The translations under genes and the position numbers were made by a program. DNA of 36,745 bases, from the IMG/VR virus record IMGVR_UViG_2585427964_000003. The stretch is one strand, 5' to 3'. The notes beneath the pieces are model-generated. The model made no database searches and was not told the DNA's origin. It was given only the letters and a program-made list of their open reading frames with translations. Origin of the DNA: a virus (Duplodnaviria > Heunggongvirae > Uroviricota > Caudoviricetes). Position 1 is the stretch's first letter. Each line of letters starts with the position of its first letter. Positions 5,413 to 33,128 of this stretch are shown piece by piece.

Positions 5413-6603
5413 TTAATTGCTGTTAACCGAGGTGACCAGATTTGCCAGGTATTTATCGGTAATACGCTGGCGCAGGGTCAGGTTTTCGAGAGGAGGCACC
5501 GGGGTATAGTCGTAGTCGATATACAGTTTTCCGGCCTTGAGGGTTTCCGCATCGTTGGATTCTTCGCTGAACCAGCAGGTCGCATCCACGATATAGCCGT
5601 TTGTTTTCAGCTCACGGAATTTGGCATTGATGCCGTCAACGATGTCGCGAATCAGCGTTGCGGTGATGGGCTTGTCCACCGCCCACATGTGCGCCTCAGC
5701 CATCGTGTCGGCCAGCACCTGCGCGGTGCGGGTGTAGTTTTCAAAGAGGAACAGCGGGTCATCGGAGCAGGTACGGTTACCCCAGAAGCGGAAACCGTCG
5801 CGGCGAATCAGCGTTGTGACGCCTGACTCGTTAAGCAGGTCAGCATCGGTGCCGGACTCCTGCAAATCCCAGAATACAGATGCGCTGATGCCGGTAACAC
5901 CGTTCACCCCGACATTGGACAGCGTTTTATGCCAGCCCTGCTCCTGGTCGATTTTAGCGCGCAGACCCAGCGCACGGGCGGTGGCATACGCGGTGGCAGT
6001 GGTACTGGTGACCGTATCCCATGCGAGGAAATCCGGCCAGATGACCATCAGCTCACGCTGGCTGAAATTCTGACGGTAGGCTTTCACCTCGGAAATAGTT
6101 TTACAGCCCCATGCGCTGATATACCCGAAAGCGCGCAGCTTCTGACAGACTGATGCCAGTGCAACAGCCACCTCTTTGGTGTCCAGTCCCGGCACGCCGA
6201 GAATACGCGGTTTAACACCAGTTACCGACTCCGCCGCCAGCAGGGCTTTCAGTCCGGTGTACTGACCGTTTTCGTCGGTGGTGCCGATGATATTGGAAAC
6301 GGTCTGCGCGAGTTTCGTTTCTTCGTCGTCGCCGGTGCCGTCTTCCACACGCACGACAACGGTGACCGGTTTTGACTGGTCGGCGATGGCCTGCAACGAT
6401 GCCGCCAGCGTGCCTTTTTTACCGGCCTTTGCAATTGCGCTCTGCACATTGGTAATCAGCACAGGTTTATTGAGGGGGAAGGTTTCCGCATCCGCATCGC
6501 TGGCCGTGCAAACCATGCCGACAATGGCAGTGGATACAGTGGAAATGACGCGGGTGCCATCGTTAATCTCCAGCACCTGCACGCCATGATGATAGTCACT
6601 CAT
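5413..6603 (-). CDS. FI: Contractile tail sheath protein gpFI
   Basis: 396-aa ORF, size and position match P2 FI. Confidence 0.92.
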   Translation of the reverse strand: MSDYHHGVQVLEINDGTRVISTVSTAIVGMVCTASDADAETFPLNKPVLITNVQSAIAKAGKKGTLAASLQAIADQSKPVTVVVRVEDGTGDDEETKLAQTVSNIIGTTDENGQYTGLKALLAAESVTGVKPRILGVPGLDTKEVAVALASVCQKLRAFGYISAWGCKTISEVKAYRQNFSQRELMVIWPDFLAWDTVTSTTATAYATARALGLRAKIDQEQGWHKTLSNVGVNGVTGISASVFWDLQESGTDADLLNESGVTTLIRRDGFRFWGNRTCSDDPLFLFENYTRTAQVLADTMAEAHMWAVDKPITATLIRDIVDGINAKFRELKTNGYIVDATCWFSEESNDAETLKAGKLYIDYDYTPVPPLENLTLRQRITDKYLANLVTSVNSN

Positions 6604-6780
6604 CCGTTTAACTCCGTGGTTAATGGGTGCAACTATTTTCTGTTGGGCAGTGCATGAGACGCTATTTGACCTGGCTGGTCAGTGGATGAAACAACAGATA
6701 AAGAAAAGGCGGGCAATCAGCTTGCCTGCCTTGATTTGTACTCTCTCTGTTTCCAACTGACAAATTACGTAACCAAAATT

Positions 6781-6796
6781 CTGTCAAATCTGACAG
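6781..6796 (-). terminator. Hairpin CTGTCA-AATC-TGACAG, followed on the minus strand by AATTTTGG; putative terminator of the 6864..7556 cargo gene
   Basis: Perfect 6-bp inverted repeat with 4-nt loop about 70 nt downstream of the minus-strand stop at 6864; short stem and short U tract, so weak. Confidence 0.3.
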
Positions 6797-6863
6797 CCTG
6801 TTTTGAGCGAAGAGCGGACCTGAGATTGTGGTATGCTAATTTATGGGGAGCAGGTCAATTGTA

Positions 6864-7556
6864 TTAGTTATCTTTTTGCTTTTCTTTATCCCATTTCTTT
6901 GCAGTGGTCTGATACCACTCTTCACGTGCTCGTTGTTCCTCGGCTCTGTCACTTGAATTATAGTTGTCTGTTTTAATTTTTTTGCTTCCCTGGGAAATCG
7001 GCCTCCAGTCTTCTCTAATCTTTTTCATCTGCTCAGCTATCTGTGTCATTGGACTCCTTGCACCTAAGTAGCTAACCCCCTCGAAAGAAGCCATATCATA
7101 AGAATACTCATTCCGCTCTCTTTCAGTTGAGCCCGGCTGTTTAGACCAGCTAATACTAACAGAATAAACTTGATCTTTAATCTGGTCATACTTACAAAGA
7201 CTGCTGTTGAGGGAATGGCCGTTTTTCAATACGCTAACCTTGCTAAATGGTATACCTTTATTTTTTCTATGTTCTGCATTAACCAGTGGGGGATTAAATC
7301 CGACTTCAATATCATAGGCTGGGGCATTTCCGGTATTAGCAATATTGATATCAAAATAAAAAGCAGCCCAAGAATTTGGTTCAAGAGTCACAACGACATG
7401 AGGTTGAACTGATGCGTCAACCATCCTTTTTGTCTCGTCTGCTAATAGCCTTGTTACTCTCCACAAGAAAAATGTAGCAACTGCTGTTAGCAATGCTGCC
7501 AAAGCGGAGATAAGTGTACTTACTGTGTTTATATGCTCTGCGATAAATTCGATCAT
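6864..7556 (-). CDS. Hypothetical membrane-anchored protein (cargo in Z/fun-equivalent variable locus)
   Basis: 230-aa ORF with AAGGA Shine-Dalgarno 7 nt upstream of ATG; one N-terminal hydrophobic helix (VSTLISALAALLTAVATFFLW), then a soluble domain and a lysine/glutamate-rich C-terminus. Visibly AT-rich compared with flanking P2 genes. No family recognised by eye. Confidence 0.6.
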   Translation of the reverse strand: MIEFIAEHINTVSTLISALAALLTAVATFFLWRVTRLLADETKRMVDASVQPHVVVTLEPNSWAAFYFDINIANTGNAPAYDIEVGFNPPLVNAEHRKNKGIPFSKVSVLKNGHSLNSSLCKYDQIKDQVYSVSISWSKQPGSTERERNEYSYDMASFEGVSYLGARSPMTQIAEQMKKIREDWRPISQGSKKIKTDNYNSSDRAEEQRAREEWYQTTAKKWDKEKQKDN

Positions 7557-8047
7557 GAGTTGTCCTTGGGGGCGTACTAATTGTTTTCAATACTAAAATA
7601 GCGCCGAGCTTGAAAAATTGCACACTTATAGTTCGATTTACCTCAACAGTTAAGGCTTCAACTTCCCCCATGCACCTCACCCAGCCCAAGACTGTATGAG
7701 GTCTGACAAAGAACTTCCTGACACTTGAAAACGAGGCAACGGCTAGGGTTTCTCGTAGGGCAAGGATTGAATACGAAGCCTGTATATTGCTCCGCGAACA
7801 CTGCTGAGGGCAGTTTAAATGTTGGGCGTTTATGTAGCCTTTCACTCACCAGCATGAGTTCAATGTCTGTGAGTTACCGACAACAATATAAAGGGGGTGG
7901 CATCATCATATATCCAAGCTAGAGTCAAATCCTCTAACTGGTTTTATGATCAGTGTCAATTGTTTGATTATTAAACGTTTACGAAGCAGCACGGGAGCCA
8001 TATAACTAATGGGCAGGTATAAGCCTGTATCACGAGGAATCAGTAAA

Positions 8048-8227
8048 ATGGCTGATGATAAGACCAAAATCGGTACCCCTGACAATGATTTAATAAGTAT
8101 CAAACAGGATTACGAGAGACGTGATTGGGCTGAAAAGTTTGGAGTTAGCGAGGCCAAACTTGTTCAAGCCGTACAGGCTGTAGGTCATTCGGCTAAGAAA
8201 GTACAGGCATGGCTTAAAGACCATTAA
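8048..8227 (+). CDS. Small DUF3606-like protein
   Basis: MADDKTKIGTPDNDLISIKQDYERRDWAEKFGVSEAKLVQAVQAVGHSAKKVQAWLKDH; the pattern (basic N-term, Y-E-x-x-W-x-x-KFGVS, AVxxVGxSA) matches my recollection of DUF3606 proteins. ATG at 8048 has an AGGAA Shine-Dalgarno; the ORF-track start at 8009 is probably upstream of the real start. Confidence 0.55.
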   Translation: MADDKTKIGTPDNDLISIKQDYERRDWAEKFGVSEAKLVQAVQAVGHSAKKVQAWLKDH

Positions 8228-8233
8228 TATATG

Positions 8234-8259
8234 AGCGCCTTTCTAGGCGCTTTTTTCTT
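8234..8259 (+). terminator. Rho-independent terminator after the DUF3606-like gene
   Basis: AGCGCCT-TTCT-AGGCGCT stem-loop (7-bp stem) immediately followed by TTTTTTCTT, 7 nt after the stop codon. Confidence 0.6.
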
Positions 8260-8332
8260 TGTCCTTTGGGAGATGATTTATGGCTAATAATGTATTACTT
8301 ACGACCTCATTAAAACGAAAGATTATGCGGCT

Positions 8333-8554
8333 GTGTATGATGCAATTAAATCTTTAGGAAATTGGGCTTTAACAACTGAATCGAACTGGTATGTTAACTG
8401 TAGTTACTCTGCCGAGGATGCAGCCAAAATTGTGAGGGCGGTCATGGATAGTGATGATAAGCTTATTGTTGTAGACGCAACCAATAACTCAGCTTATTGG
8501 TACAATCTCTCAGATGAAGTTAGTAACCAAATTCTGACTGAGTGGAACAAGTAA
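8333..8554 (+). CDS. Hypothetical small protein (GTG start in ORF track; possibly frameshifted)
   Basis: 73-aa ORF beginning with GTG and no Shine-Dalgarno. A 25-codon ORF with a strong GGGAGA Shine-Dalgarno starts at ATG 8280 in another frame and overlaps it. AT-rich. Confidence 0.35.
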   Translation: MYDAIKSLGNWALTTESNWYVNCSYSAEDAAKIVRAVMDSDDKLIVVDATNNSAYWYNLSDEVSNQILTEWNK

Positions 8555-8583
8555 TTAAAGGGGGTGGGTACCCCCCCCTTTAA
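8555..8583. terminator. GC-rich hairpin (AAAGGGGG-loop-CCCCCTTT), likely bidirectional terminator
   Basis: Begins 1 nt after the stop at 8554; lies between the plus-strand cargo genes and the converging minus-strand G gene. Confidence 0.5.
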
Positions 8584-8776
8584 TTCAGAAACTATCATGA
8601 TTGAAACATTAAATATACTGGGTTAATTCTTTCATCCTTGCTCCCTTGCTATATGTCCTGAAAGCGTCCTTTTTAGCCTTCTGCTCAGTATGTCCGGTAA
8701 TGGCACAGAGCGGACTGTCAGATTAGGCTTTACTCTGTGCCATAGATATGTAAGCTCCCACCAGAGCTCATACAAC

Positions 8777-9304
8777 TTATTGCGGCATTTCCGGCCATTC
8801 AGGATTTGCAGGATCCACACGACTGACCAGAACGCTGTAGCGTTCCCAAGACTCCAGCCGTGTGCGCTCCTCCTCTGTTGCCATGTTCAGTCTGACCGCG
8901 CGCTCCAGCGGCAAAATCACGGATTCAGCATCTGCAAGAAGTCTGGCTTTCCGAATTTCTGCCTGCTGCTGCAATTCCTCTGCCGTATAAATGCGTTTAA
9001 TCACTTTGCCGTCCTTAAACATCCAGTTCCCTGAAATGTCCGCCCGTCGGTTAGCAGTAATATCCGCCACTTCAACAACACTTAATCCATCCGGTCTGAT
9101 AGCTGTCACATCCTTTTCCACATAGCGGATGATATTATCTTTGTCGTACGCTATTTTTATCGTGTCATCAGCAAAATACTTTTGTTGTTCGTACCAGTTC
9201 TTACCATCTTCTGAAAAAAACCAGACAACATCAAAGTCCTTTGTCAATTGATATTGTTCAACCGTTTTTGGATTACCCGCCTTAATATTTTTTAAATGCT
9301 GCAT
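8777..9304 (-). CDS. G: Tail fibre assembly protein gpG
   Basis: 175-aa ORF (P2 G is 175 aa) immediately downstream of H. Confidence 0.85.
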
Positions 9305-9307
9305 AAA

Positions 9308-11554
9308 TTATACCTGCGCCACGTTATACCATGTCCCGTTAATGTATTTCTGCACCGGTCTGTAATATACGCCACCAATGTTATCGGCAGAGTTTGAGCC
9401 GGTATCCTGAACAATAATGCCGGTATATACGCAACCTGACGGAGCCTGATGCGTCCATGTAGTACCATTATTTGCTGGTTTATATGTAGATGCACCGCCC
9501 AGCCGCATGTCTCTCACATAACGTGAATCTGACTCAGCTTTGGTGTATGCACCAACATCTCCCGCTGAGGGTTTTCGTGTTGTGGTATAGAAATCAGACC
9601 AGCCAGATTCAAAACCATAACCATCACGGGCTGACCTGTAAGATATACCGCCATTTTTATAATTCACACGAAACTGTACAGCCGGGCAGCTACCAGCATT
9701 TATATTAAAGTGAAGAATTAATGCAGATGCTCCCCCAATCAGAGCGTTGTATGCGCCACTGTCCCAATTCCATCCAACGGCTGTATCACCATTAACCGTA
9801 TTACCTGTCTGCCGAAGTGCAAATGCACCGACATTTCTGGCATTAAGGGTAATATCTCCAGAACCATCAAAGGCAACACCTGCTATTTTCCTCGGTGTTT
9901 CGAGTTTTGAGGCTGTTGCAGCATTTCCTGAAAGGTTGGAAATAAATGGATGTGAGCAGTAATAACCGCGCCCATTTTTAAAATCCAGAATAGCCTGTGC
10001 GTTCGTGCTTTCTGTAGCGGGATTAGTTGCCCCCCACTTATATGTCGTTTGACCGACGACATAATCCTCTGTCGGAACAATAACCGTTAGCCCTTCCTCT
10101 GCAAGAATTTGCACAGGGAAAGCTCTGGCTTCAACATAAAAAACACTACATACATCATCATCTTTCAGGCTTGTAACAATGGAATGGATTGAACGCTCAT
10201 TGGTCTGATACGTCCAGAAATAACCTGCCGCATATGAACCACGATCAGTCCATCCTCCGGGCATAACCATGCCATTAAACTCGCAGTTATTCATTACATA
10301 ATCGCCGTTATAACAACCAGTGGAAATAACGACGCGGGATGCCATTTCTCCTGAAAGGCTGGCAGCACGGCGAAAGATAACGGGATACCACTTCCCGGCA
10401 ACGACATTTGCAGGGGCTGCAAACGAATACTTTCGCATTCCCTTTTTCTTATCCACTTCACCTTTGCTGTAAACATTAATGTTACTCAGGAAGCGTTCTT
10501 TATCAGGAATATCCGCACCGTTCTGATCTTTCTGAAGACGTTTTTCAGCATTGTCATTGGCAGACTTCACCGCTTTTGGTGTTGCGGCCAGCGTTTCAGA
10601 ATCACTGTTGGTGGCGCTACTTAGCTGGACAAGACCTTTTCGCGCTGTGGTGGCATCCTGTGCAGTGTATTTCCCGTTAGCAAGGTCATACGCTGTCTTA
10701 ACCGCCTTTGGCGTTGCGGCCAGCGTTTCAGAATCGCTGTTGGTGGCACTACTGAGCTGAACAAGGCCTTTTCGCGCGGTGGTGGCGTCCTGCGCGGTGT
10801 ATTTGCCATTAGCAAGGTCATATGCTGTCTTAACTGCCTTCGGCGTTGCTGCGAGCGTCTCAGATTCGCTGTTGATGGCACTACTTAGCTGAACAAGACC
10901 TTTTCGCCCCGTGCTGGCGTCCTGAGCGGTATATTTTCCGTTAGCAAGGTCATACGCTGCCTTAACCGCTTTCGGCGTTGCAGCCAGCGTTTCAGATTCA
11001 CTATTGGTCGCGCTGCTTAACTGAGTAAAACCTTTTGCAGTCAGTGAGGCGTCCGGGTGGCGTCGTGACTGTTCGTGTTCTGCAATTTTGTCATCAACGT
11101 AATCCTGCGTCGCCATCACCGTTGTGGTGTCAATGGTCAGATCCACTGAGGCCACACTGCTGACGATAATGACCATGCGGCAGGTCTGCGAACGTCCTGA
11201 GCCTTCGGCAAGGGCTGGCTTATAACTTTCGGCCATGTTCGCCACGGCAATTAACGTTCCCGCATCATCGTACAGGCCAAGCTCACGCATCCAGAAACCG
11301 CCCACCTCCGGCGGAATAACCAGCTCTGCGATAATATAATTACTGTTTCGTTTGTCCTGGCTGATTTTGTTCAGCGCATGTCGCCAGACTTCGTGGATAA
11401 GCCCGGTCTGTCCGGCATCCGGGACAGGCAATTTACCACCGCCATCCCCGACGGCCATCGTGGTAATGTTGACCTTCCGCCCTCCCGGCGCGGTTGCCGC
11501 TGCCAGCTTTGCTGCACCGGCAGTGGTGATAACGGTTTTGAATTTTGTGCTCAT
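9308..11554 (-). CDS. H: Tail fibre protein gpH
   Basis: 748-aa ORF; N-terminus MSTKFKTVITTAGAAKLAAA... typical of P2-like H; contains tandem phage tail-fibre repeats (SETLAATPKAVK.AYDLANGKYTAQDA). Confidence 0.9.
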   Translation of the reverse strand: MSTKFKTVITTAGAAKLAAATAPGGRKVNITTMAVGDGGGKLPVPDAGQTGLIHEVWRHALNKISQDKRNSNYIIAELVIPPEVGGFWMRELGLYDDAGTLIAVANMAESYKPALAEGSGRSQTCRMVIIVSSVASVDLTIDTTTVMATQDYVDDKIAEHEQSRRHPDASLTAKGFTQLSSATNSESETLAATPKAVKAAYDLANGKYTAQDASTGRKGLVQLSSAINSESETLAATPKAVKTAYDLANGKYTAQDATTARKGLVQLSSATNSDSETLAATPKAVKTAYDLANGKYTAQDATTARKGLVQLSSATNSDSETLAATPKAVKSANDNAEKRLQKDQNGADIPDKERFLSNINVYSKGEVDKKKGMRKYSFAAPANVVAGKWYPVIFRRAASLSGEMASRVVISTGCYNGDYVMNNCEFNGMVMPGGWTDRGSYAAGYFWTYQTNERSIHSIVTSLKDDDVCSVFYVEARAFPVQILAEEGLTVIVPTEDYVVGQTTYKWGATNPATESTNAQAILDFKNGRGYYCSHPFISNLSGNAATASKLETPRKIAGVAFDGSGDITLNARNVGAFALRQTGNTVNGDTAVGWNWDSGAYNALIGGASALILHFNINAGSCPAVQFRVNYKNGGISYRSARDGYGFESGWSDFYTTTRKPSAGDVGAYTKAESDSRYVRDMRLGGASTYKPANNGTTWTHQAPSGCVYTGIIVQDTGSNSADNIGGVYYRPVQKYINGTWYNVAQV
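10560..11035 (-). repeat. Tandem repeat, period 132 bp (44 aa), about 3.6 copies, inside gene H
   Basis: The GCGTTTCAGA motif recurs at 10591, 10723, 10855 and 10987 (spacing exactly 132 bp); the protein shows four near-identical 44-aa units. Confidence 0.85.
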
Positions 11555-14063: not shown

Positions 14064-14849
14064 ATGTTCAGTGATAATGTGACTAATGCGTGGTGGTTTA
14101 TCTCTTTGTATCTATTTTTATTAATAGCATTAACATTTGTTACCTTTGGTAAAAGTAATCTTATGAGGTTTATTGCACATCATTTCAATCTTGAGTATTC
14201 AGACAGAAAGTTAAAAATGCTCGACAAAAAATGGCGCGACATTCAACTATTTAAAATAATTAACGGAATCAATGTATCAGGCATCGAAGATGTGAGAATG
14301 ATACAGCAGGGGCTGATTGATGGAAAACTAAAAACATCGTATTTTTTCCTTACTCGCTTCTGGGGTGACATAACAAAACCACCACACATAATTAAAACAA
14401 TAATTGTAATTCTGGCCAGTATTATTTATATTCTCTTCGCATGTTATATACACAACAAACAATCCGCTATAGTAAGAGATGCCATAGGCATACCATATAA
14501 AAATATGATGTACTATGTTTATAGTGACAAAGTTCTTTTATCCTTCAAAAATAAAGCAGTTGAATTTAATAAAACTTATAGCCTTGCCGATTGCAAGAGA
14601 CTGCAAAACGTATTTATAAAAGACACACTTCCTGAAATCGCCTGCAATAAGCTCTTACAGCTAAACGAGGAGGACTCGGAATGGTTAAGTCAGGAGATTA
14701 AAGATAATAACAGCCAAAAAAAAGCATTATTAATAATATCCCTCATCTATTTCATTTCAGGTCTGGTTATATTCCTGTCATATACAAAATTCCTTTACGC
14801 CAATAAGAAGGTTGTAGAATACAAAGCATCAAATAAAAATCACTCATAA
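14064..14849 (+). CDS. Hypothetical integral membrane protein, three predicted TM helices (cargo in orf30-equivalent locus between V and S)
   Basis: 261-aa ORF on the opposite strand to the late operons; GAGGAGAG Shine-Dalgarno 4 nt before ATG; hydrophobic segments WWFISLYLFLLIALTFVTF, IIKTIIVILASIIYILFACYI and ALLIISLIYFISGLVIFLSY; strongly AT-rich with Lys/Asn/Ile-rich codon usage. Confidence 0.65.
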   Translation: MFSDNVTNAWWFISLYLFLLIALTFVTFGKSNLMRFIAHHFNLEYSDRKLKMLDKKWRDIQLFKIINGINVSGIEDVRMIQQGLIDGKLKTSYFFLTRFWGDITKPPHIIKTIIVILASIIYILFACYIHNKQSAIVRDAIGIPYKNMMYYVYSDKVLLSFKNKAVEFNKTYSLADCKRLQNVFIKDTLPEIACNKLLQLNEEDSEWLSQEIKDNNSQKKALLIISLIYFISGLVIFLSYTKFLYANKKVVEYKASNKNHS

Positions 14850-15373: not shown

Positions 15374-15833
15374 CCCACTTGCTCACCAGTTCGCCATTGA
15401 TATAAAGCTCCATCGGGCGGGTGACCGGCTCCGGCGGCGTGGGTTCCGGGATATTCTTCACATGCAGCGCGCCGTCCACCTCACTGACCAGCGTGCGCTC
15501 GGTCAGCATCAGGCTGATGCTGATATCAAAGCTGCTGTCATTGTTGATGTCTGCATAAAACGTGAAGCCCTTTTTCTGACCTTCGTAAGTGGTCATGATG
15601 TCGGGCTGATTTTCCCGCAGCCACGCCAGCACCGGCACGATGAGCAGGTCAAAATCACCGGTAAAGTCGGTCACAATCACATTGAGCGTGTAACGCTTTT
15701 CGAACGACAGCGACGTCGCCAGCGTGGAGGCAATACTCCCGTTATCCACGAATATCCGAAGCATCTCTGGACTGGTTTTCAGCACCGTGACGGCATCAGT
15801 CAGCGCCCTGCGCAGGCTGTCGGGTTTGAGCAT
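15366..15833 (-). CDS. R: Tail completion protein gpR
   Basis: 155-aa ORF, size and position match P2 R. Confidence 0.88.
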   Translation of the reverse strand: MLKPDSLRRALTDAVTVLKTSPEMLRIFVDNGSIASTLATSLSFEKRYTLNVIVTDFTGDFDLLIVPVLAWLRENQPDIMTTYEGQKKGFTFYADINNDSSFDISISLMLTERTLVSEVDGALHVKNIPEPTPPEPVTRPMELYINGELVSKWDE

Positions 15834-18465: not shown

Positions 18466-18658
18466 TGCGTATTTTCATGAAAGGAGATCACTCAATAACT
18501 TCCATCGAGATCGGGTAATAACATTTGAACAGATCGCTGAATAACATCGATGGAGATCACTTTTGACTCATTTTGTTATTCAGTGATCTCCATCAATGTT
18601 ATTGGAACTTCACAGGTGTGTTGATCTGTATCTTTTGCCATTCCGGTAAAGGATACCT

Positions 18659-20200
18659 ATGCCAACAGTTCCAATTTCTATGAGAAAACTTAAAGAAATT
18701 CTTAGGCTTAAATACGGTGTTGGACTCAGCCATCGACAAATTGGTCGTAGTCTTGCAATCTCCCCTTCCGTTGTATCCAGATATGCTAATCGGGCGGCTC
18801 AACTTGGCATAAAGCAGTGGCCCTTACCTACAGGATGGGATGATACAAAACTAAAACATGCGTTCCTTCAGACCCAGGTTAAGATGAAGAAGCACTCTCT
18901 GCCTGACTGGGCTACAGTACACCGGGAACTGCGTAATAAATGCGTGACGCTGCAGCTACTCTGGGAAGAATACTGTGAGCGTAATCCAGGCGGTTTTTAC
19001 AGCTATAACCATTACTGCCGGATGTACCGTGAATGGCTCAAAACCACTTCACCATCAATGCGTCAGGTACATAAAGCTGGCGAAAAACTTTTCGTTGATT
19101 ACTGTGGACCTACCGTTGGCGTTACCGACCCTGAGACCGGAGAAATAAGAACTGCTCAGGTCATCGTAGCTGTTCTCGGGGCATCAAGTTACACATGGGC
19201 AGAGGCCACCTGGTCTCAGCAGCTTGAAGACTGGGTGATGAGTCATGTTCGCTGCTTCCAGTGGTTGGGTGGCGTTCCTGAACTTGTTGTTCCGGACAAT
19301 CTGAAAAGCGCCACATCCAGGGCATGTAAGTATGATCCTGACGTTAACCCTACCTACCAGCAGATGCTTGAGCATTATAATGTCGCAGTTTTGCCTGCGC
19401 GGCCACGTAAACCGAAAGATAAAGCCAAAGCTGAAGTTGGCGTTCAGGTTGTTGAACGCTGGATCATGGCCCGAATCAGGCATGAGATCTTCTACAGCCT
19501 TGCATCGCTTAATCAGCGCATTCGGGAGTTGCTGGAAAGACTGAATAACAAAATAATGCAGAAGTTGGGTTATTCACGTGCAGAACTCTTCATCCAGCTT
19601 GATAAACCCGCACTGAAGCCTCTTCCTGAAGCCAGTTACAGTTACACCCTGGTGAAGAAAGTCAGAGTTCATGCCGATTACCACGTGGAAATCGACAAAC
19701 ATTACTACTCGGTTCCATGTTCGCTGTTAGGCCAGCAACTGGAAGCATGGATCTCCGGAGAACTGGTAAGACTCTTCAATCAGGGGCAGGAGGTTGCTGT
19801 GCACCCGCGCAAGCGTACTTATGGCTACAGTACCCGCAACGAGCACATGCCTGAAGCTCATCGACAGCATGCCACCTGGACGCCAGAGCGTCTTCTGGAA
19901 TGGGCGGGGCACATAGGCAGTGAAACTCATAGTTATGTGCTTCATATACTGAACTCTCGTCCACATCCGGAACAAAGCTATCGCTTCTGCCTTGGACTCC
20001 TGAACCTTCATAAAAAATACAGTAAAGCCAGACTTAATGCAGCATGTGCAAGAGCTCTGAAAACAAAGGTATGGCGTCTGTCAGGTATTAAATCGATCCT
20101 GGAAAAAGGTCTGGATAAACAACCTGTTCAGGATCCAAAACCAGATCTGTTATCCACGATGGAACACGAAAACGTACGCGGCAGTGAGTATTACCACTGA
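18659..20200 (+). CDS. istA: IS21-family transposase IstA
   Basis: 513-aa ORF with N-terminal helix-turn-helix (LSHRQIGRSLAISPSVVSRY) and a DDE-type integrase core; AAGGA Shine-Dalgarno before the ATG. Confidence 0.85.
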   Translation: MPTVPISMRKLKEILRLKYGVGLSHRQIGRSLAISPSVVSRYANRAAQLGIKQWPLPTGWDDTKLKHAFLQTQVKMKKHSLPDWATVHRELRNKCVTLQLLWEEYCERNPGGFYSYNHYCRMYREWLKTTSPSMRQVHKAGEKLFVDYCGPTVGVTDPETGEIRTAQVIVAVLGASSYTWAEATWSQQLEDWVMSHVRCFQWLGGVPELVVPDNLKSATSRACKYDPDVNPTYQQMLEHYNVAVLPARPRKPKDKAKAEVGVQVVERWIMARIRHEIFYSLASLNQRIRELLERLNNKIMQKLGYSRAELFIQLDKPALKPLPEASYSYTLVKKVRVHADYHVEIDKHYYSVPCSLLGQQLEAWISGELVRLFNQGQEVAVHPRKRTYGYSTRNEHMPEAHRQHATWTPERLLEWAGHIGSETHSYVLHILNSRPHPEQSYRFCLGLLNLHKKYSKARLNAACARALKTKVWRLSGIKSILEKGLDKQPVQDPKPDLLSTMEHENVRGSEYYH

Positions 20201-20211
20201 TACGGGATCCA

Positions 20212-20961
20212 ATGATGAATCATCTTTACGAACAACTGACCGCACTTAAACTCACCGGCTTCCGTGATGCGCTTAAAAAGCAACTTGCTCAGCCGGGCAC
20301 ATACCAGGAGCTGGGCTTCGAAGAACGCCTGTCATTACTGACAGCAGAAGAACTAACCTGCCGTGAAAACAGGAAGGCAGAGCGTCTGATCAAACATGCA
20401 CGGTTCAGACTTAATGCTGAGTTATCAAAGCTGGATTATCGTAACAATAGAGGGCTGGACAGGGCCCTCATCCGTTCACTCAGTCAGGGAAACTGGTTAA
20501 CCCTGAAACAAAATATTTTACTGACCGGGGCCACCGGCAGCGGTAAAACGTTCCTGGCATGTGCACTTGGTCATAATGCCTGCCGACAGGGATACAAGGT
20601 CTACTATTATCGCCTTAAAGCGCTGATGGAACAGTGCTATCAGGGGCATGCTGATGGAAGATACAGCAAACTTTTGACCAGGCTGAATAATAGCGATCTG
20701 CTGCTTCTGGATGACTGGGGGCTGGAACCTCTCTCATCAGAACAGCGTAGCGACCTGCTGGAAATAGTGGATCTGATGTACCAACGAGGCTCAATCATCG
20801 TAGTGAGCCAGTTGCCGGTGGAAAACTGGTACAAAATGATCGGAGACTCCACACATGCGGATGCCATCCTAGATCGACTGGTTCATGGCAGTATCAAGAT
20901 CGAACTTAAAGGAGAATCAATGCGGAAAATACAATCTCCGTTGACCGAAGGAGATCAGTGA
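20212..20961 (+). CDS. istB: IS21-family ATP-binding helper protein IstB
   Basis: 249-aa ORF with Walker A (GATGSGKT) and Walker B (LLLLDDWG), the typical IstB AAA+ architecture, immediately downstream of istA. Confidence 0.88.
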   Translation: MMNHLYEQLTALKLTGFRDALKKQLAQPGTYQELGFEERLSLLTAEELTCRENRKAERLIKHARFRLNAELSKLDYRNNRGLDRALIRSLSQGNWLTLKQNILLTGATGSGKTFLACALGHNACRQGYKVYYYRLKALMEQCYQGHADGRYSKLLTRLNNSDLLLLDDWGLEPLSSEQRSDLLEIVDLMYQRGSIIVVSQLPVENWYKMIGDSTHADAILDRLVHGSIKIELKGESMRKIQSPLTEGDQ

Positions 20962-21018
20962 AGGTAATTTAAAAACGGTTCTGTGAAAGTGACACGAACC
21001 GATCTCCATCGATGTTAC

Positions 21019-21711
21019 TCACCGATCTCCTTCACGGTAATACGCAGCCGCTTTGGGCTGCGGCTTCGGTTTCAGCTCCCGCTCCAGTCGTTCAATCTCT
21101 TTTTTGACGCCTGCCTGACAGTCGAGCTGTGTCGCACGTTGCAGGTGCGCCAGCGCCCCTGCGGCATCACCAGCGTCACGCAGAAACAGACCGGTGATTT
21201 TGTGCAGCTTTGCGCGCACTTCATCAGGCATGTCTGCCGTGGCGGTAAGTTCAAGGGTGTCCGTCAGCAGGCGGGTATCCACGGATTCACCGGCAGCGTG
21301 AGCGCGCATGGCCGCGAGTGCCACTTCCTCGGTGAACATGTACGGCGGGGTGCGGCGGTGTTTACCCGGCATGGTCAGACCGTACTTCAGGGCATAACGG
21401 GCAATCTCCAGCGCACCGGCAATATCGCCGGTATCCAGACGCCACAGCATGACCGTCATCAGAATGTCATCCTGTGCACCTTTGCCCTGCTCCAGCACGC
21501 CGTTCACCCACGGCAACCAGAACGGCAGCAGTTCGCGTTTTTTCGCGGCCTTCAGCTCTTTTGAATAAATCGCTTTCAGTGTGCGCTGGTCTGCGGCGAG
21601 CTTAACCAGCATCTGCTCATAGACAGTTGCATGTCGCAGCGGGGCGGCTTCCCGCTGCGCGGTCATCGCTGCCGAGACCCGCATCATGTGGCGCTGTGCG
21701 GGACTCGTCAT
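21019..21711 (-). pseudogene. M: Terminase small (endonuclease) subunit gpM, 3' end interrupted by IS insertion
   Basis: 230-aa ORF MTSPAQRHMMRVSAAMTAQ...; its last 8 codons (AYYREGDR-stop) are encoded by the IS right terminus. Native sequence runs up to the GCCGC duplication at 21047-21051. Confidence 0.8.
21047..21051. repeat. Target-site duplication GCCGC (right copy)
   Basis: Identical 5-mer to 18461-18465, directly flanking the right IS terminus. Confidence 0.7.
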
Positions 21712-27016: not shown

Positions 27017-27901
27017 TCAGGCGCAAGTTGGCATTGAGACCCCTTTCAGGGTATTAGGAATAATTATTTCAGGAGAAAAAATCATCACTTCCTCTCCAGA
27101 TTTTTTGAGATGTGCTGTATATTGCAATGAATACTCAACTTGCGGAAATCCATTATAAATATCTTTAATTTCCTTAGCGTTATCATAAGAAACAAGCCAA
27201 TTTGGGAAATTAATTTCTGTGAGTTTCTTCATAACCAATACATGGTCATCATGCTCATAAAAATTCCTGTAAAGCCCTTGCCCTTTAATATAGTAAGGAG
27301 GATCCAAATACAAAAGAATTTTATTTTTATCCACCTTTCCCATATTATCCATAAAATTCAAGGCATCAAGAAAATCCAAAGCATCCAGATTAGTTACTAC
27401 TATTCTTTGATTATAATTTGCTATCTTCTCAATTCTTGAAATTAAATCCGCCCTGTTAAAGCGAACATCCATTTTCCATTTTCCATTTTGTGATTTCCCG
27501 CCTATAACCCCCGCCTTGAGAATACCTGAACGATTTGTTCTATTTAAGAAAAACGCAGCAAAGCCAACCTCAAGCTTAGTAAACTCAGAAGGATTCGAAA
27601 TAACATAGCGATGAAAAGACCATTCATCCATATCTATCTTTGCTCGGCTAATAAGTCGGCAAAGCTCATCAGTATCACTAACAACAGATGACCAAAAAGA
27701 ATAAACAGCAAAATCTGCATCATTTATATAGATTTTACGGACATACTCTTCCAATAATAATTCTAAAGCCACCCCTGCACCACCAGCGTAAGGTTCTGCA
27801 TATGCTCCATCATTCAACGAGTTTTTTTCAATAACATCTTTTAAAAAGTAAGATAACTTACCTTTCCCGCCGGGGTATCTTAATGGAGTATAAAATTTCA
27901 T
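27017..27901 (-). CDS. Dam-class (D12 family) N6-adenine DNA methyltransferase
   Basis: 294-aa ORF with GAGGG Shine-Dalgarno; motifs YPGGKGKL near the N-terminus, PYAGGAG (SAM-binding FxGxG-like) and LDPPYY (catalytic DPPY). Strongly AT-rich; lies in the tin/old-equivalent position. Confidence 0.8.
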   Translation of the reverse strand: MKFYTPLRYPGGKGKLSYFLKDVIEKNSLNDGAYAEPYAGGAGVALELLLEEYVRKIYINDADFAVYSFWSSVVSDTDELCRLISRAKIDMDEWSFHRYVISNPSEFTKLEVGFAAFFLNRTNRSGILKAGVIGGKSQNGKWKMDVRFNRADLISRIEKIANYNQRIVVTNLDALDFLDALNFMDNMGKVDKNKILLYLDPPYYIKGQGLYRNFYEHDDHVLVMKKLTEINFPNWLVSYDNAKEIKDIYNGFPQVEYSLQYTAHLKKSGEEVMIFSPEIIIPNTLKGVSMPTCA

Positions 27902-27938
27902 AAATCCCTCTCATTCCTGATTTTGTAGTTTATCAGTT

Positions 27939-27958
27939 TCTGGACATCCATGTCCAGA
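27939..27958. promoter_or_regulatory. Perfect palindrome TCTGGACA-TCCA-TGTCCAGA upstream of the methyltransferase gene (candidate operator)
   Basis: 8-bp perfect inverted repeat with 4-nt spacer in the 69-bp gap between the two cargo genes, 38-57 nt upstream of the methyltransferase ATG. Confidence 0.4.
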
Positions 27959-27970
27959 TGTAGACAAATC

Positions 27971-29476
27971 TCACTCACTCCAAATAAGGCTTAATAACAA
28001 CTCAAAGTTATCCCACTCAGTGTTGACAGCCTCTTTTGAGGGAATTAAGTGTGGGTTATGTACATACTGCTGCAATGAACCATCATGTTTAGTTATTTGG
28101 CTCGAGAAAGTTATTACAGCCGTACATTGACTCCCCGTCATCTTTTTATTTTCCCGAAGGAAATTAGCACACATTTTAACCTTATCATGAAGCCCTGGAG
28201 TTCTATGTGGTTCCTTAAATTGTAACTTGTTTTCTTCAACAAAAGTGCTTACAGAGAGATCTATAAATATTCTCAACAATATTGAGATAGCATTAGGGGT
28301 GTTATCAAATGTCAGATGCGACTTAAGCTCATTAAATATTCTAGAGCATTTCTTATGCCCTCTAAAATTAAATTTCACATAAGATGGCACCAACACATTA
28401 CGATCTACTTTAGGAGGAGTTTTTCCCTTGTTTTTATTCTGTTCCGTGCCCGAAACTTTAGATTTACTCTCTTCTGTGCCTACATGTCTAGAATAATCAT
28501 CTTCCTGTTTATCCACACCTGTATTCTTTAAGGCATCACCTTCTGAAAGACCTACTTTCTTTACACTCACAGATGCATCATTTTTGTCAATAGAATCATG
28601 TTTTTTCTCTGTAAGAAAAGATTTAGGCTCCAGTAAACTCCACGGCTTATCTAAAAGAGATTCTGAAGGTTTTATTTTTTGTTCAATAATAAATGTAACC
28701 CTGTCATCTTGGCTACGAATCCTATTAACAGTAAAACAAGCCTTACCTTTATCATCCTCTTCAATCATTACATCTAAAATATTTTTTAATTGTGCACAAA
28801 AACGTTCATAAGGCTGATATGAGTATAGAACTCCATTAATGCTTTTTAAATTAAAATAATCCCTCACCTTTAAATCACCAAAAAGACGCGTGATGTTTGT
28901 GATTTTTAAAAGTCTTTTTTTAGCAATTATCTCTTTATATAAATCAGTATTGAACTCTATAAATGTAAGTATTTGATTACCAAATGACTGCTTACCCATC
29001 CTAGCCAGATGTCGTGCTTTTTCTGTTGCAGTCCATTCAACTCTTCCAACTCCAGCATTTTGACCAGTATGCTTTAAATTGACCCAATGCTCATATTCAT
29101 CATCGTCAAAAAGAACGCAGTTATCTATAACATTAATATCTTTAAGCTGAGTAATCTTAAGTTTTTCAAAAGCTTTCCGTGCTTTTTCTGTTGGTGCAAG
29201 TCTAGGAGAGTGTAAAAGTTTAAGGGCTGTAACTCGACGATTACCTTCAGCAACGACGAAAAAGCCAGATTCCTCTTCACTAGGATAAACTAATATGTTT
29301 TCAGACGGATCTAAACCTTTCGAAGCAATATCTTTAGCCAAGCGATAAATGCGGTCGTACTGCAAGTCAAGCATCTTGGCAATAGCATCACGCTGATTTT
29401 CTGCTGACGTCGGGAAACGAGGGTTATCAACATCCAAAAGTAACTTATTGATATTCATTGATTTTAGTTGATTCAT
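27971..29476 (-). CDS. ParB/Srx-fold nuclease-domain protein with long C-terminal extension (cargo gene)
   Basis: N-terminal region LLLDVDNPRF ... ILVYPSEEESGFFVVAEGNRRVTALKLL carries the ParB N-terminal domain signature (GxRR). A Lys/Glu/Ser-rich low-complexity linker is followed by a roughly 150-aa C-terminal domain of unrecognised type. Start chosen at ATG 29474-29476 (AGAGGA Shine-Dalgarno 8 nt upstream, 501 aa); the ORF track extends to 29545 (524 aa). AT-rich. Confidence 0.7.
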   Translation of the reverse strand: MNQLKSMNINKLLLDVDNPRFPTSAENQRDAIAKMLDLQYDRIYRLAKDIASKGLDPSENILVYPSEEESGFFVVAEGNRRVTALKLLHSPRLAPTEKARKAFEKLKITQLKDINVIDNCVLFDDDEYEHWVNLKHTGQNAGVGRVEWTATEKARHLARMGKQSFGNQILTFIEFNTDLYKEIIAKKRLLKITNITRLFGDLKVRDYFNLKSINGVLYSYQPYERFCAQLKNILDVMIEEDDKGKACFTVNRIRSQDDRVTFIIEQKIKPSESLLDKPWSLLEPKSFLTEKKHDSIDKNDASVSVKKVGLSEGDALKNTGVDKQEDDYSRHVGTEESKSKVSGTEQNKNKGKTPPKVDRNVLVPSYVKFNFRGHKKCSRIFNELKSHLTFDNTPNAISILLRIFIDLSVSTFVEENKLQFKEPHRTPGLHDKVKMCANFLRENKKMTGSQCTAVITFSSQITKHDGSLQQYVHNPHLIPSKEAVNTEWDNFELLLSLIWSE

Positions 29477-29832
29477 CAACATATCCTCTGTTGAATCTTT
29501 ATGATAAAAATTAATTATTTTTATCATAAATGATAGCGTAAACATAGTCTTATGAACGACATCAGCCCTGAAGCTTCAAAACTATCATTTACGTTTGCGA
29601 GGCACCATCTATCACATTGATTTATAATAAGTATCTTTATCTTCACTGCATTGCTCTCAAAAAATCACATAGATGGAAATTCCCCGTTGACACACTCCCA
29701 AGTGATGCAGATACATTTCAAGTGCTTCATACACATGATAACGGCTATCCCCCTAAATTCTGTGCGTTTCTTTTCCCTCCAGCACAAGGTTGAAATATCT
29801 TGCGTGCAGCTTTACTTTGTGAATCTTTGTCA

Positions 29833-32124: not shown

Positions 32125-33128
32125 TCACATACACCGGCATAGACACTACTGCAAACGGCTTTATCATTCGCCGAAGCCAGTAAATCAAACTGAGTACCCC
32201 CACGCGTTGTCATTGTCCAGTCATGGTAGGTTTCTATTCCGTATGCCTCGACTGTTACAATCTCAATACGACGTTCTGCGCGTAGCGGATCATGTGTGGA
32301 TGGGAAAAAAGTGGAATTTCCCCGACGGGAGCACGACGCAACCAGTCGTTCCCATTCAGCAACCCGTTTTATTTCCTCCGGCCACCGGCGAAAAATTTCT
32401 GCCAGTTCAGATTTACGGACATGAATACATGGCATACAACCAACACGGCCACACCCCTGCTGATATAACGGATTTGGCTTAATGTCATGTCTTCTGGCTA
32501 TTGCAAATACATCTTCATGCTTCCAGTGCAAAATCGGGCGATATACATGCAATCCGGGGGTGTTGTCTGCATCCTCTTCCCAGACAGGTAAAGCAGCGCG
32601 TGATGGCGATTCCTGAGCACGCACTCCCTGCCAGCTAATCACTTCCTCAAATTCATTGAGTAAAGGCAATATTACCTGAGAACGCACGGGCTCATGTTTC
32701 AGTTCAAATGTGCAAAATCTGGCTTTGGTTGATGGGAAACGCCCCTTCCACAGACACAAATCAAGAAACGGGATACCCGTTGGTTTGAGAATTTCCAGCG
32801 CACAACTGATGCGCTGGTGCGCTTCTTCTTCCGACATTCCACAATCGTTAACCAACAAATCAGGCCATTTGGTCTGGATAAACTTGCGCTTTGATTCAAT
32901 CCGGCAGGAAAAATCAGCTCTGACTCTTTTAATTGGGCCAAGCCGTTTTTCCAGATAATCCAGATATTTCATTGTCTGTGGATGTTCATGTCCCGTATCA
33001 GCAAAAACCGGCAATATGGGTACATTTTCTTCAATAGCGACAAGCCACTGAGCAAGGCTGTCCTTTCCACCTGAAACAAAAATAACATTGATGGTATTTT
33101 CAGTATGGCAACGAGCATCAGTAATCAT
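32121..33128 (-). CDS. PAPS reductase / DndC-like PP-loop ATP pyrophosphatase family protein
   Basis: 335-aa ORF with N-terminal PP-loop VIFVSGGKDS and a C-terminal cysteine cluster (GCGRVGCMPC). Start overlaps the orf83-like stop and its stop overlaps the A start (ATGA at both junctions). Confidence 0.75.
   Translation of the reverse strand: MITDARCHTENTINVIFVSGGKDSLAQWLVAIEENVPILPVFADTGHEHPQTMKYLDYLEKRLGPIKRVRADFSCRIESKRKFIQTKWPDLLVNDCGMSEEEAHQRISCALEILKPTGIPFLDLCLWKGRFPSTKARFCTFELKHEPVRSQVILPLLNEFEEVISWQGVRAQESPSRAALPVWEEDADNTPGLHVYRPILHWKHEDVFAIARRHDIKPNPLYQQGCGRVGCMPCIHVRKSELAEIFRRWPEEIKRVAEWERLVASCSRRGNSTFFPSTHDPLRAERRIEIVTVEAYGIETYHDWTMTTRGGTQFDLLASANDKAVCSSVYAGVCE

Follow-up and report, generated by a model that had tools for sequence, protein, structure and literature searches.

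Two small open reading frames lie next to each other between tail genes of a P2-like prophage, and the second looks broken. Does this part of the locus encode two functional products, or is it one gene that has lost its reading frame? We addressed this question in a 36,745-nucleotide stretch of viral DNA (IMG/VR record IMGVR_UViG_2585427964_000003; hereafter the window), the whole of which is a P2-like prophage.

The genes (8009-8554) occupy the cargo (Z/fun) position of the prophage. The tail-fibre assembly gene G (8777-9304; Caudo_TAP) is on one side and the sheath gene FI (5413-6603) is on the other, both on the strand opposite to these cargo genes. GC content is 0.38-0.42 in the cargo locus compared to 0.55-0.60 in the flanking tail genes. 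A sequence-only reading of the window had placed two small AT-rich genes on the opposite strand in a Z/fun locus, and the GC values and the positions of G and FI confirm this. Compositionally distinct and non-essential genes between G and FI are characteristic of P2 Z/fun cargo (morons), the annotation of AJ512682 labels such a locus the Z region, and the Z/fun locus is a known hotspot for accessory and defence genes (PMC13586616). The Fun(Z) gene of P2, which excludes T5, is likewise AT-rich cargo between G and FI. However, the genes themselves are unrelated, as the window locus holds ORF1, a DUF3606 gene and a gene that we refer to as Cas2-like. ORF1 (6864..7556, minus strand; 230 aa; phrog_11802) has an N-terminal hydrophobic segment, is the other cargo gene of this type of Z locus, and is annotated in AJ512682 as a "putative lysogenic conversion protein". 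We computed an inverted repeat around the entire cargo locus (left arm 6787..6819, right arm 8692-8724); inverted repeats are also annotated in AJ512682. A promoter scan of positions 6550-8850 gave zero predictions and did not locate the promoter of the two small genes, and a literature search on "P2-EC53" found no paper.

The first of the two small genes is intact. It extends from 8048 to 8227 on the plus strand, is preceded by a Shine-Dalgarno sequence (GAGGA, 8034-8038, plus strand), and encodes a 59-aa DUF3606 protein (Pfam PF12244, E 2.2e-18; phrog_10779) that is identical to WP_001406733.1 from E. coli EC6563, with 0 mismatches in the DNA from 7900 to 8227. Compared to the copies in loci L006 and L084, its dN/dS is ~0.03. 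The gene is followed on the same strand by an intrinsic-terminator-like element (8233..8258) consisting of a stem-loop (8233-8252) and then TTTTTT, with a folding energy of -13.3 kcal/mol (z -4.05). The description of a DUF3606-like gene with its own terminator was thus borne out. An equivalent GCGCC..GGCGC hairpin is found upstream of the Cas2-like gene in other contexts.

The second gene begins normally and then fails. Its Shine-Dalgarno sequence (GGGAGA, 8268..8273, plus strand) is 6 nt before an ATG at 8280 and is conserved in all aligned loci. This ATG opens only 25 codons (8280..8357, plus strand; stop 8355-8357), encoding MANNVLLTTSLKRKIMRLCMMQLNL. A 73-aa ORF called mechanically from a GTG (8333-8554, plus strand) lies in another frame and has no Shine-Dalgarno-like motif upstream; upstream, its frame stays open as far as 8291, with TAA at 8288-8290 closing it. 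These features were as the sequence-only reading had described them. A bidirectional terminator hairpin (8553..8585; -20 kcal/mol) lies 3' of the gene, and the length of its G/C tract differs between genomes.

We found that homologous loci contain a single intact ORF that starts from the same Shine-Dalgarno sequence and ATG. The intact gene is a 279-nt ORF encoding 92 aa (MANNLFITYDL...). RefSeq annotates 279-nt coding sequences at this locus in EC6563, NWU_3 and NCTC9008, and one is also present in the record of phage R18C (positions 15385-15663; the RefSeq protein is WP_000002748.1). In the R18C paper both ORFs are described as morons without a known function (PMC6823313). The intact 92-aa protein is encoded in 20 near-identical IMG/VR loci. 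Of 5426 complete E. coli genomes, 100 have the gene; every one of these (100/100) has a full-length match to the intact form, and identity is at least 99% in 92/100. The window copy shares with the P2-like prophage and R18C genes (WP_000002748.1, QDP43516.1) the gene, the locus, the Shine-Dalgarno sequence and ATG, and the terminators, and the DNA is identical except for one lesion. The gene in those elements is intact (279 nt, 92 aa), and a 4-bp deletion and a T>G substitution in codons 5-7 set the window copy apart.

The lesion (8291..8296, plus strand; alignments A1 and A4) combines T>G at 8292 with the loss of 4 bp and converts the intact AATAATTTATTTATTAC to AATAATGTATTAC. The lost 4 bp leave a tandem TTAT/ATTT repeat in codons 5-7 one unit short, the exact placement of the loss being ambiguous within 8291..8296. 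Only codons 1-4 (MANN) of the 25-codon ORF are original. Codons 7-92 and the stop codon are stranded downstream (8294..8554, plus strand), where they are 100% identical to intact alleles (by tblastn, R18C residues 7-92 match 8294-8551 at 100%), and the GTG ORF is contained within this remainder. The lesion is the sole difference from EC6563 across 7900-8554, and therefore it is recent.

Based on these results we conclude that a conserved accessory ("moron") gene of P2-like prophages, encoding 92 aa, has recently been inactivated at 8280-8554, and we put the probability of this at roughly 0.88. There are intact orthologues at the same locus, and a frame-breaking lesion removes essential parts: the window copy is very probably an ordinary recent pseudogene. 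The earlier suggestion of a gene split by a frame change, originally about 95 aa, was right. The region is best annotated as one pseudogene and not as two small ORFs. At least one pseudogene is present in 98% of P2-like prophages (PMC13586616).

Ribosomes initiating at the unchanged Shine-Dalgarno sequence and ATG would translate MANN and a further 21 codons out of frame before terminating at 8355-8357. The other 86 codons are intact but startless, with GTG 8333, which has no Shine-Dalgarno sequence, as the first in-frame start. Any product from this GTG would lack part of helix 1 and all of strand 1, including the invariant Y9-D10-L11. Because the remainder is startless and a product from GTG 8333 would be truncated in this way, the window gene is probably dead. 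Some reinitiation may occur at GTG 8333 at a low level, as may rare -1 slippage. We considered a programmed frameshift and rejected it: there is no slippery heptamer, the region 8262-8345 is no more structured than shuffled sequences (z -0.04), and only this allele has the arrangement.

The sequence-only reading had offered a second possibility, a functional two-ORF arrangement in which a 25-aa leader peptide regulates, or is coupled to, a downstream 73-aa protein. Termination-reinitiation is physically conceivable, as the stop codon of the short ORF (8355-8357) is 22 nt downstream of GTG 8333. However, the same ATG opens an ORF of 91-93 aa in the homologous loci and genomes that we examined (more than 200), none of which has a two-ORF arrangement with a conserved 25-aa peptide. 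The 25-aa sequence is confined to this allele and consists of conserved codons read out of frame, and the putative downstream product would start without a Shine-Dalgarno sequence and without strand 1 and Y9-D10-L11. We regard the leader peptide as refuted by these comparisons, and a functional arrangement of this kind as very unlikely.

It was also conceivable that the real genome has an intact gene and that the 4-bp gap is a sequencing or assembly error. Among the 100 gene-positive complete E. coli genomes, none has the deletion, and exact-pattern scans of the GTDB representative genomes, IMG/VR and JGI metagenomes did not find the frameshift allele. In addition, an unrelated contig (L100, coverage ~1) differs by another indel at the same AT-rich spot, so this spot can be miscalled. 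Against an error, a search for proteins exactly matching the 73-aa ORF, the one route by which the allele was recovered, retrieved a contig from an independent metagenome assembly (ENA ERZ13616587, NODE_302105) that is 100% identical to window positions 7980-8551 (572/572 bases), including both the deletion and T>G. The two assemblies might conceivably share a systematic error or a source strain. The type of lesion, loss of a repeat unit together with a substitution, is not that of a homopolymer miscount. Furthermore, when we compared 33 other R18C proteins to the window, we found no frameshift or premature stop except in gpM, which is split by an insertion sequence (for tail fibre H, the match to R18C was limited to diverged segments). 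Indel errors are therefore not widespread in the assembly, and we consider an artefact quite unlikely.

How the lesion arose can be proposed from its form. Slipped-strand mispairing during replication would account for the loss of one repeat unit. The scans did not reveal an intermediate allele with T>G alone, and we therefore only infer in which order, and by what mechanism, the two changes occurred. Loss of exactly one tandem tetranucleotide unit might also suggest a phase-variable ON/OFF switch operating by slippage in the ATTT/TTAT repeat. However, the intact gene has just two repeat units, far below the numbers at known contingency loci, the one unit left after the deletion is destroyed by T>G, and all 100 gene-carrying complete E. 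coli genomes retain a full-length intact match without the deletion. These observations make a switch exceedingly improbable.

What was lost can be judged from the intact family. We collected 141 homologues, nearly all of 91-93 aa and with the common N-terminus MANNLF[IV][TS]YDL. Matches at E<=1e-3 included 2454 representatives of 50%-identity clusters, spread over Proteobacteria and their phages; most are apparently single-domain proteins of ~92 aa, as judged from 150 that were listed. Values of dN for the gene were 0.14-0.29, with saturated synonymous sites. Longer members were uninformative when we looked to domain fusions as a functional clue. A 1507-aa member that has Baseplate_J and CBM domains probably arose by read-through or by fusion during gene calling, and others are tandem duplications.

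No Pfam model passed its threshold for the family, the only sub-threshold matches being to DUF3884 and Cas2; sub-threshold matches to CRISPR_Cas2 were found in 21/43 members (best E 1.1e-3), and one member, P0001, had none. Cas2 models in PADLOC, which have no curated cut-off, matched with a best E of 6.8e-5. There was no match in NCBIfam, nothing better than E 0.12 in a profile search of PDB sequences, and only uncharacterised proteins (best E 3e-3) in the BFVD viral fold library. The AF2 model of the intact protein has a pLDDT of 95.4 and the topology b-a-b-b-a-b-b-a, with the invariant Y9-D10-L11 at the end of strand 1 across the family. A Foldseek search of the PDB with this model returned 7vxr as the top match, followed by many Cas2 entries.

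The model resembles CRISPR-associated Cas2 (PF09827) in its predicted b-a-b-b-a-b ferredoxin fold and in the conserved Asp that ends strand 1. It differs in that the family scores fall under every curated threshold (the PF09827 gathering score is not reached), and in that the intact protein has a helix at the C-terminus, where Cas2 has the strand used to bind Cas1 (PMC10491678). We found no cas1 or CRISPR array in the contexts examined and no Cas1 family among the Pfam matches in 20 mapped loci, where the neighbours are integrases, phage structural genes and small ORFs. A relationship to Cas2 is consistent with the predicted fold and the sub-threshold HMM matches on which it is based, ferredoxin-like folds being common.

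The top match, 7vxr, is BPSL1038 of Burkholderia pseudomallei, a member of a Cas2/VapD nuclease sub-family that features metal-independent dsDNA endonuclease activity (PMC10491678). In BPSL1038 the ferredoxin fold is modified and has an additional long helix at the C-terminus (PMC10491678), and our model has a helix at residues 80-90 after a strand at 72-76. The two are not matched at the sequence level (profile search of the PDB, 7vxr E>10). BPSL1038 has the motif D11(X20)SST, whereas the family has an invariant D10 and S36 (D10-X25-S36), in a T-E-S-N-W context, and no SST. In addition, BPSL1038 is chromosomal in Burkholderia, and the family member here is a phage moron. Based on the confidently predicted fold, we suggest that the intact protein belongs to the Cas2/VapD-type ferredoxin-fold superfamily as a stand-alone member and is closest to BPSL1038.

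VapD, which has VapX as its partner, and the product of the gene described here are both small Cas2-like proteins, and each is encoded on a mobile element with a small gene upstream. By this analogy, the DUF3606 gene and the Cas2-like gene might form a toxin-antitoxin-like pair, as the sequence-only reading had proposed, and the frameshift would be the loss of the toxin. Several observations could be accommodated by such a pair. The two genes form a cassette (7937..8704, plus strand; 79% identity by blastn to the integrase-adjacent locus of other enterobacterial islands, L006), and this ~770 bp cassette moves jointly between the P2 cargo locus and the integrase-adjacent locus in Enterobacterales. 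In its predicted fold the protein shows a relationship to VapD and a weaker one to GhoS (PMC10491678). The DUF3606 gene is still intact in the window, and the Cas2-like gene has been disrupted repeatedly in other strains (IS insertions in P0071 and P0081), which would fit a costly gene.

In contrast, the linkage between the genes is neither tight nor conserved. They are separated by a 52-nt spacer that contains the terminator hairpin (-13.3 kcal/mol, T-run), an arrangement unlike that of such pairs, whose genes overlap or lie within a few nt of each other and are co-transcribed. The upstream gene is DUF3606 in 28 loci, all close relatives of the window locus, and an unrelated 42-aa lysine-rich protein in 18. 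In the 46 distant loci examined the Cas2-like gene is alone, with no conserved upstream gene and no conserved neighbours beyond overlapping alternate-frame ORFs; this argues against a strong toxin, which would not stand alone. Conversely, homologues of the DUF3606 protein at 56-77% identity are found without a Cas2-like neighbour. The conserved co-occurrence that defines type II toxin-antitoxin systems is therefore not seen. Even within the "same" cassette, dS is 0.41 for DUF3606, whereas synonymous sites in the Cas2-like gene are saturated, and this discordant divergence indicates recombination between the two genes. PADLOC gave nothing above noise for DUF3606, and the helical loop insertions of VapD are absent from the AF2 model. 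Unlike VapX/VapD, the upstream partner here is neither conserved nor tightly coupled, and most family members are alone. We conclude that the DUF3606 gene is intact and independent and travels with the Cas2-like gene as a cassette, not as an obligate pair. A toxin-antitoxin-like pair is not supported and we consider it unlikely.

Few unannotated cargo genes of the P2 Z/fun hotspot are as common as the intact gene, and the predicted fold and weak profile matches of its product link it here to the Cas2/VapD/BPSL1038 superfamily. This provides a hypothesis for a widespread "hypothetical protein", namely that it has a D10-dependent activity directed at nucleic acid. We infer that the intact protein could be a small dimeric nucleic-acid binder or cleaver that the prophage expresses and that plays a part in mobile-element conflict. 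We also raise, tentatively and as a prospect well short of even odds, the idea that the 92-aa family is an uncharacterised stand-alone Cas2/VapD-like class carried by temperate phages in cargo hotspots as a mobile-element conflict factor. If so, the protein might work as a small nuclease that confers superinfection exclusion, or it might mimic Cas2 and thereby disturb CRISPR adaptation, and the loss-of-function alleles (the frameshift in the window and the IS21-family insertions in other E. coli strains) would be a mark of cost to the host.

The terminase gene M (gpM) of the window prophage is interrupted by an IS21-family element. This insertion and the pseudogene at 8280-8554 mark the prophage as decaying.

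We found that the window is a P2-like (Peduovirus) prophage. A tblastn comparison with the proteins of the P2-like phage R18C gave the gene order ogr, D, U, T, E, FII, FI, then G, H, I, J, W, V, S, R, followed by the lysis genes, X, L, M, N, O, P, Q, A, B, cox, C and int. Two small genes lie in cargo between FI (5413-6603, minus strand), which borders it on the left, and G (8777-9304, minus strand), on the right; this is the position that fun(Z) occupies in P2. The cargo locus is AT-rich (GC 0.38-0.42, versus 0.55-0.60 in the adjacent tail genes). An imperfect inverted repeat flanks it (6787-6819 and 8692-8724), and AJ512682 annotates the same repeat for the 'Z-region' of P2-EC53. The locus is a known hotspot for accessory and defence genes (PMC9122126, PMC13586616).

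The elements that the sequence-only reading had described at 8009-8554 are all present. The first gene (8048-8227, plus strand) encodes a DUF3606 protein (Pfam E 2.2e-18). It has a Shine-Dalgarno sequence (8034-8038, plus strand) and is followed by a terminator hairpin (8233-8252, then T6, plus strand; -13.3 kcal/mol, z -4.05). At the second gene, the Shine-Dalgarno sequence GGGAGA (8268-8273, plus strand) lies 6 nt ahead of ATG 8280, which opens just 25 codons. What remains of the gene is a 73-codon ORF with a GTG start (8333-8554, plus strand) in a different frame, open back to 8291 and bounded by TAA 8288-8290. A second, bidirectional hairpin follows (8553-8585, -20 kcal/mol).

We found that the second gene, which encodes a Cas2-like protein, is intact at homologous loci. 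By megablast, 102 of 5426 complete E. coli genomes contain region 7900-8650, as do phage R18C and P2-EC53. At homologous loci RefSeq annotates the DUF3606 protein WP_001406733.1, then a single 279-nt CDS (WP_000002748.1) that begins at the equivalent of the window's Shine-Dalgarno and ATG and encodes 92 aa (MANNLFITYDLIKTKDYAAVYDAIKSLGNW...TEWNK). In the alignment, the window reads ATGGCTAATAATGTAT----TACTTAC where all others read ATGGCTAATAATTTATTTATTACTTAC. In codons 5-7, one tandem tetranucleotide unit is lost and a T is changed to G (G8292); the 4-bp deletion may have arisen by replication slippage. These five positions aside, no difference separates the window from the closest intact allele, that of E. 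coli EC6563, over 7900-8227 and 8294-8554, and residues 7-92 of the remainder are 100% identical to the R18C protein. Given this identity, the inactivation is recent and shows no secondary decay. The window copy is very probably an ordinary recent pseudogene, which supports the proposal that a single gene of about 95 aa had been frameshifted.

The rival explanation is a sequencing or assembly error. The lesion was present in 0/100 complete E. coli genomes carrying the gene (best identity over 8250-8350, 95.2%, which corresponds to the five differences), and in all 100 the full length matched the intact form. The frameshift allele was also absent from GTDB representatives, IMG/VR and JGI metagenomes in exact-pattern scans. 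An exact-protein look-up of the 73-aa ORF returned two ENA metagenome contigs. One of these, ERZ13616587 NODE_302105 (572 nt), matches window 7980-8551 at 100% identity, lesion included. The other, with coverage of ~1, has a different 1-nt indel that is probably an error. When 34 R18C proteins were compared with the window, the Cas2-like gene was the sole frameshifted one; gpM was split by an insertion sequence, and tail fibre H matched in diverged segments only, yet its 748-aa ORF is open. We consider an artefact very unlikely and conclude from these comparisons that the lesion represents an apparently genuine, rare allele.

Translation from the native start now yields MANN plus 21 nonsense residues. 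The first start in the stranded frame, GTG 8333, falls at residue V20 of the full-length protein, and no Shine-Dalgarno sequence precedes it. The intact protein was modelled with AF2 (pLDDT 95.4, pTM 0.85). Strand 1 spans residues 3-10 and closes with the invariant Y9-D10-L11; helix 1 spans residues 17-25. If initiated at V20, a product would, on this model, lack strand 1 and part of helix 1, and any GTG-initiated fragment would presumably be non-functional. The alternative of a leader peptide plus a downstream gene is refuted by its own test, comparison with homologues, because the 25-aa peptide is an out-of-frame reading of conserved codons and occurs in no homologue. Programmed frameshifting or phase variation was also rejected. 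A slippery site is absent, no structure was found (8262-8345 folds like its shuffles), and the intact gene has merely two repeat units, the remaining one of which is destroyed by the T>G change.

The intact protein belongs to a large family. A word-indexed search gave 141 homologues, almost all of 91-93 aa, from Enterobacterales and tailed-phage contigs. With a full HMM search the family grew to 2454 cluster representatives (50% identity) at E<=1e-3, of which 416 had an E-value of 1e-10 or better; among the representatives listed, most were single-domain proteins of ~92 aa and a few were tandem duplications. Family loci came from Gamma-, Beta- and Alphaproteobacteria, Desulfobacterales, Campylobacteraceae and others. 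The invariant positions are M1, A2, N4, Y9, D10, L11, Y17, L27, G28, S36, Y39, D58, D61 and W90. Between enterobacterial copies dN was 0.14-0.29 with synonymous sites saturated, and this is therefore a protein-coding gene under purifying selection. Members P0193, P0207, P0211, P0232, P0278 and P0280 of the representative library (200-260 aa) contain two tandem Cas2-like repeats, which would fit a normally dimeric protein.

The protein passes no curated Pfam or NCBIfam model and matches phrog_1090, a phrog without known function. Sub-threshold matches to Pfam CRISPR_Cas2 were obtained for 21 of 43 family members, with E 1.1e-3 at best. Several PADLOC Cas2 profiles also matched the family (best E 6.8e-5). 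Foldseek against the PDB placed 7vxr at the top (prob 1.0, TM 0.58), then many Cas2 entries; none of the matches, 7vxr included, was at E<=1e-3. We rejected identity with CRISPR Cas2 because the curated thresholds were not reached and neither cas1 nor a CRISPR array was found in any of the contexts examined. BPSL1038 (PDB 7vxr), which cleaves dsDNA as a stand-alone Cas2/VapD-like endonuclease, carries a catalytic D11 and an additional helix at its C-terminus (PMC10491678). The modelled protein shares this helix (80-90) and places an Asp at the corresponding position; in contrast, the D(X20)SST motif is not kept, the family having D10-X25-S36. We class the intact protein within the Cas2/VapD-type fold superfamily, as a stand-alone member that comes closest to BPSL1038. 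It might work as a dimer and, through D10, bind nucleic acid or act on it as an enzyme. The intact gene may be expressed in lysogeny and act in conflict between mobile elements, a role suggested because the locus is an accessory and defence hotspot. Placing a moron family that is widespread but annotated as 'hypothetical' in the Cas2/VapD/BPSL1038 fold class is the one modestly new result.

It had also been suggested that the two genes form a toxin-antitoxin-like pair. Close relatives (at least 71% identity) do keep DUF3606 upstream of the Cas2-like gene at the same spacing, and they do so in two settings, the P2 Z-locus and, in other enterobacterial islands, a terminal site beside an integrase (shared DNA, window 7937-8704, 79% identity). 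However, the upstream partner varies. At 18 other enterobacterial loci DUF3606 gives way to an unrelated lysine-rich protein of 42 aa (MAKKTVVRSAITGQFV...), with an equivalent hairpin, a Shine-Dalgarno sequence and the Cas2-like gene after it, and 46 more distant loci showed no conserved neighbour. DUF3606 homologues (56-77% identity) of Yersinia ruckeri, Burkholderiales and Pseudorhodoferax lack a Cas2-like neighbour. Between the window and homologous locus L006, the DUF3606 proteins are 97% identical (dS 0.41) and the Cas2-like proteins 76% identical, with synonymous sites saturated. This discordance therefore indicates recombination between the two genes, and the sequences imply a putative junction near the inter-gene hairpin. 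That hairpin is a terminator standing between the two genes, a further point against an obligate pair. An obligate toxin-antitoxin pair is very unlikely, and the suggestion is unsupported.

The lysine-rich family (41-42 aa; M[AS]K[KR]xVVRSAITGQFV...AKRHPxTT[IV]TETIK) takes the place of DUF3606 upstream of the Cas2-like gene. Its genes are unannotated (L014 3814-3942, L020 3819-3944 and 16 further loci), adjoin integrases at prophage ends, and have no Pfam or NCBIfam match.

An IS21-family element (18467-21047) is inserted in the terminase small-subunit gene M. It encodes IstA (18659-20200, 513 aa, rve and Mu-transposase C domains) and IstB (20212-20961, 249 aa, PF01695, E 2e-67). The match to R18C DNA runs to 21048 and picks up again at 18466; the two segments overlap by 5 bp, the target-site duplication. 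The element cuts gpM ~25 residues ahead of its C-terminus, so the prophage is probably packaging-defective. In two proteins from other E. coli, P0071 and P0081, the Cas2-like gene is fused by read-through to the two ends of the same element (fusion termini ...VRIFMKGDHSITSIEIG and MKVTRTDLHRCYSPIS...; matching window 18469-18520 and about 20985-21030). The element therefore hit the Cas2-like gene in other strains. In homologue P0011 the N-terminus is replaced. The gene has thus been disrupted independently in other strains, which favours the view that it is costly. Neutral prophage decay would explain the disruptions equally well; 98% of P2-like prophages are reported to have at least one pseudogene, mostly in cargo loci and of unknown function (PMC13586616).

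Copies of a 21-nt direct repeat, ACAAnnAATnAAAGGGGGTGG, bracket the two-gene cassette with a spacing of 667 nt (7880-7900 and 8547-8567; 81% identity, identical 11-nt core). The left arm of the terminator hairpin is formed by the second of them, and the repeat may be a recombination scar or chance. The G/C tract of that terminator (8560-8578) differs in length between genomes, with C-runs of ~6 to 10 in aligned loci. Tail fibre H (9308-11554, minus strand, 748 aa) contains ~3-4 tandem copies of a ~45-aa repeat, KGLVQLSSATNS[DE]SETLAATPKAVK[TA]AYDLANGKYTAQDA[ST]T[GA]R, and its C-terminal half is divergent from that of R18C (35% identity). The second P2 cargo site (orf30 position, between S and V) holds a 261-aa ORF on the opposite strand (14064-14849, plus) that had no family match above noise. 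At 27017-29545 (minus strand), the cos-proximal hotspot between Q and A encodes a 294-aa adenine methyltransferase of the D12 class and a protein of 524 aa whose only match, RepB/ParB-like, is weak. A 335-aa PAPS-reductase-domain protein (32121-33128, minus strand) adjoins replication gene A.
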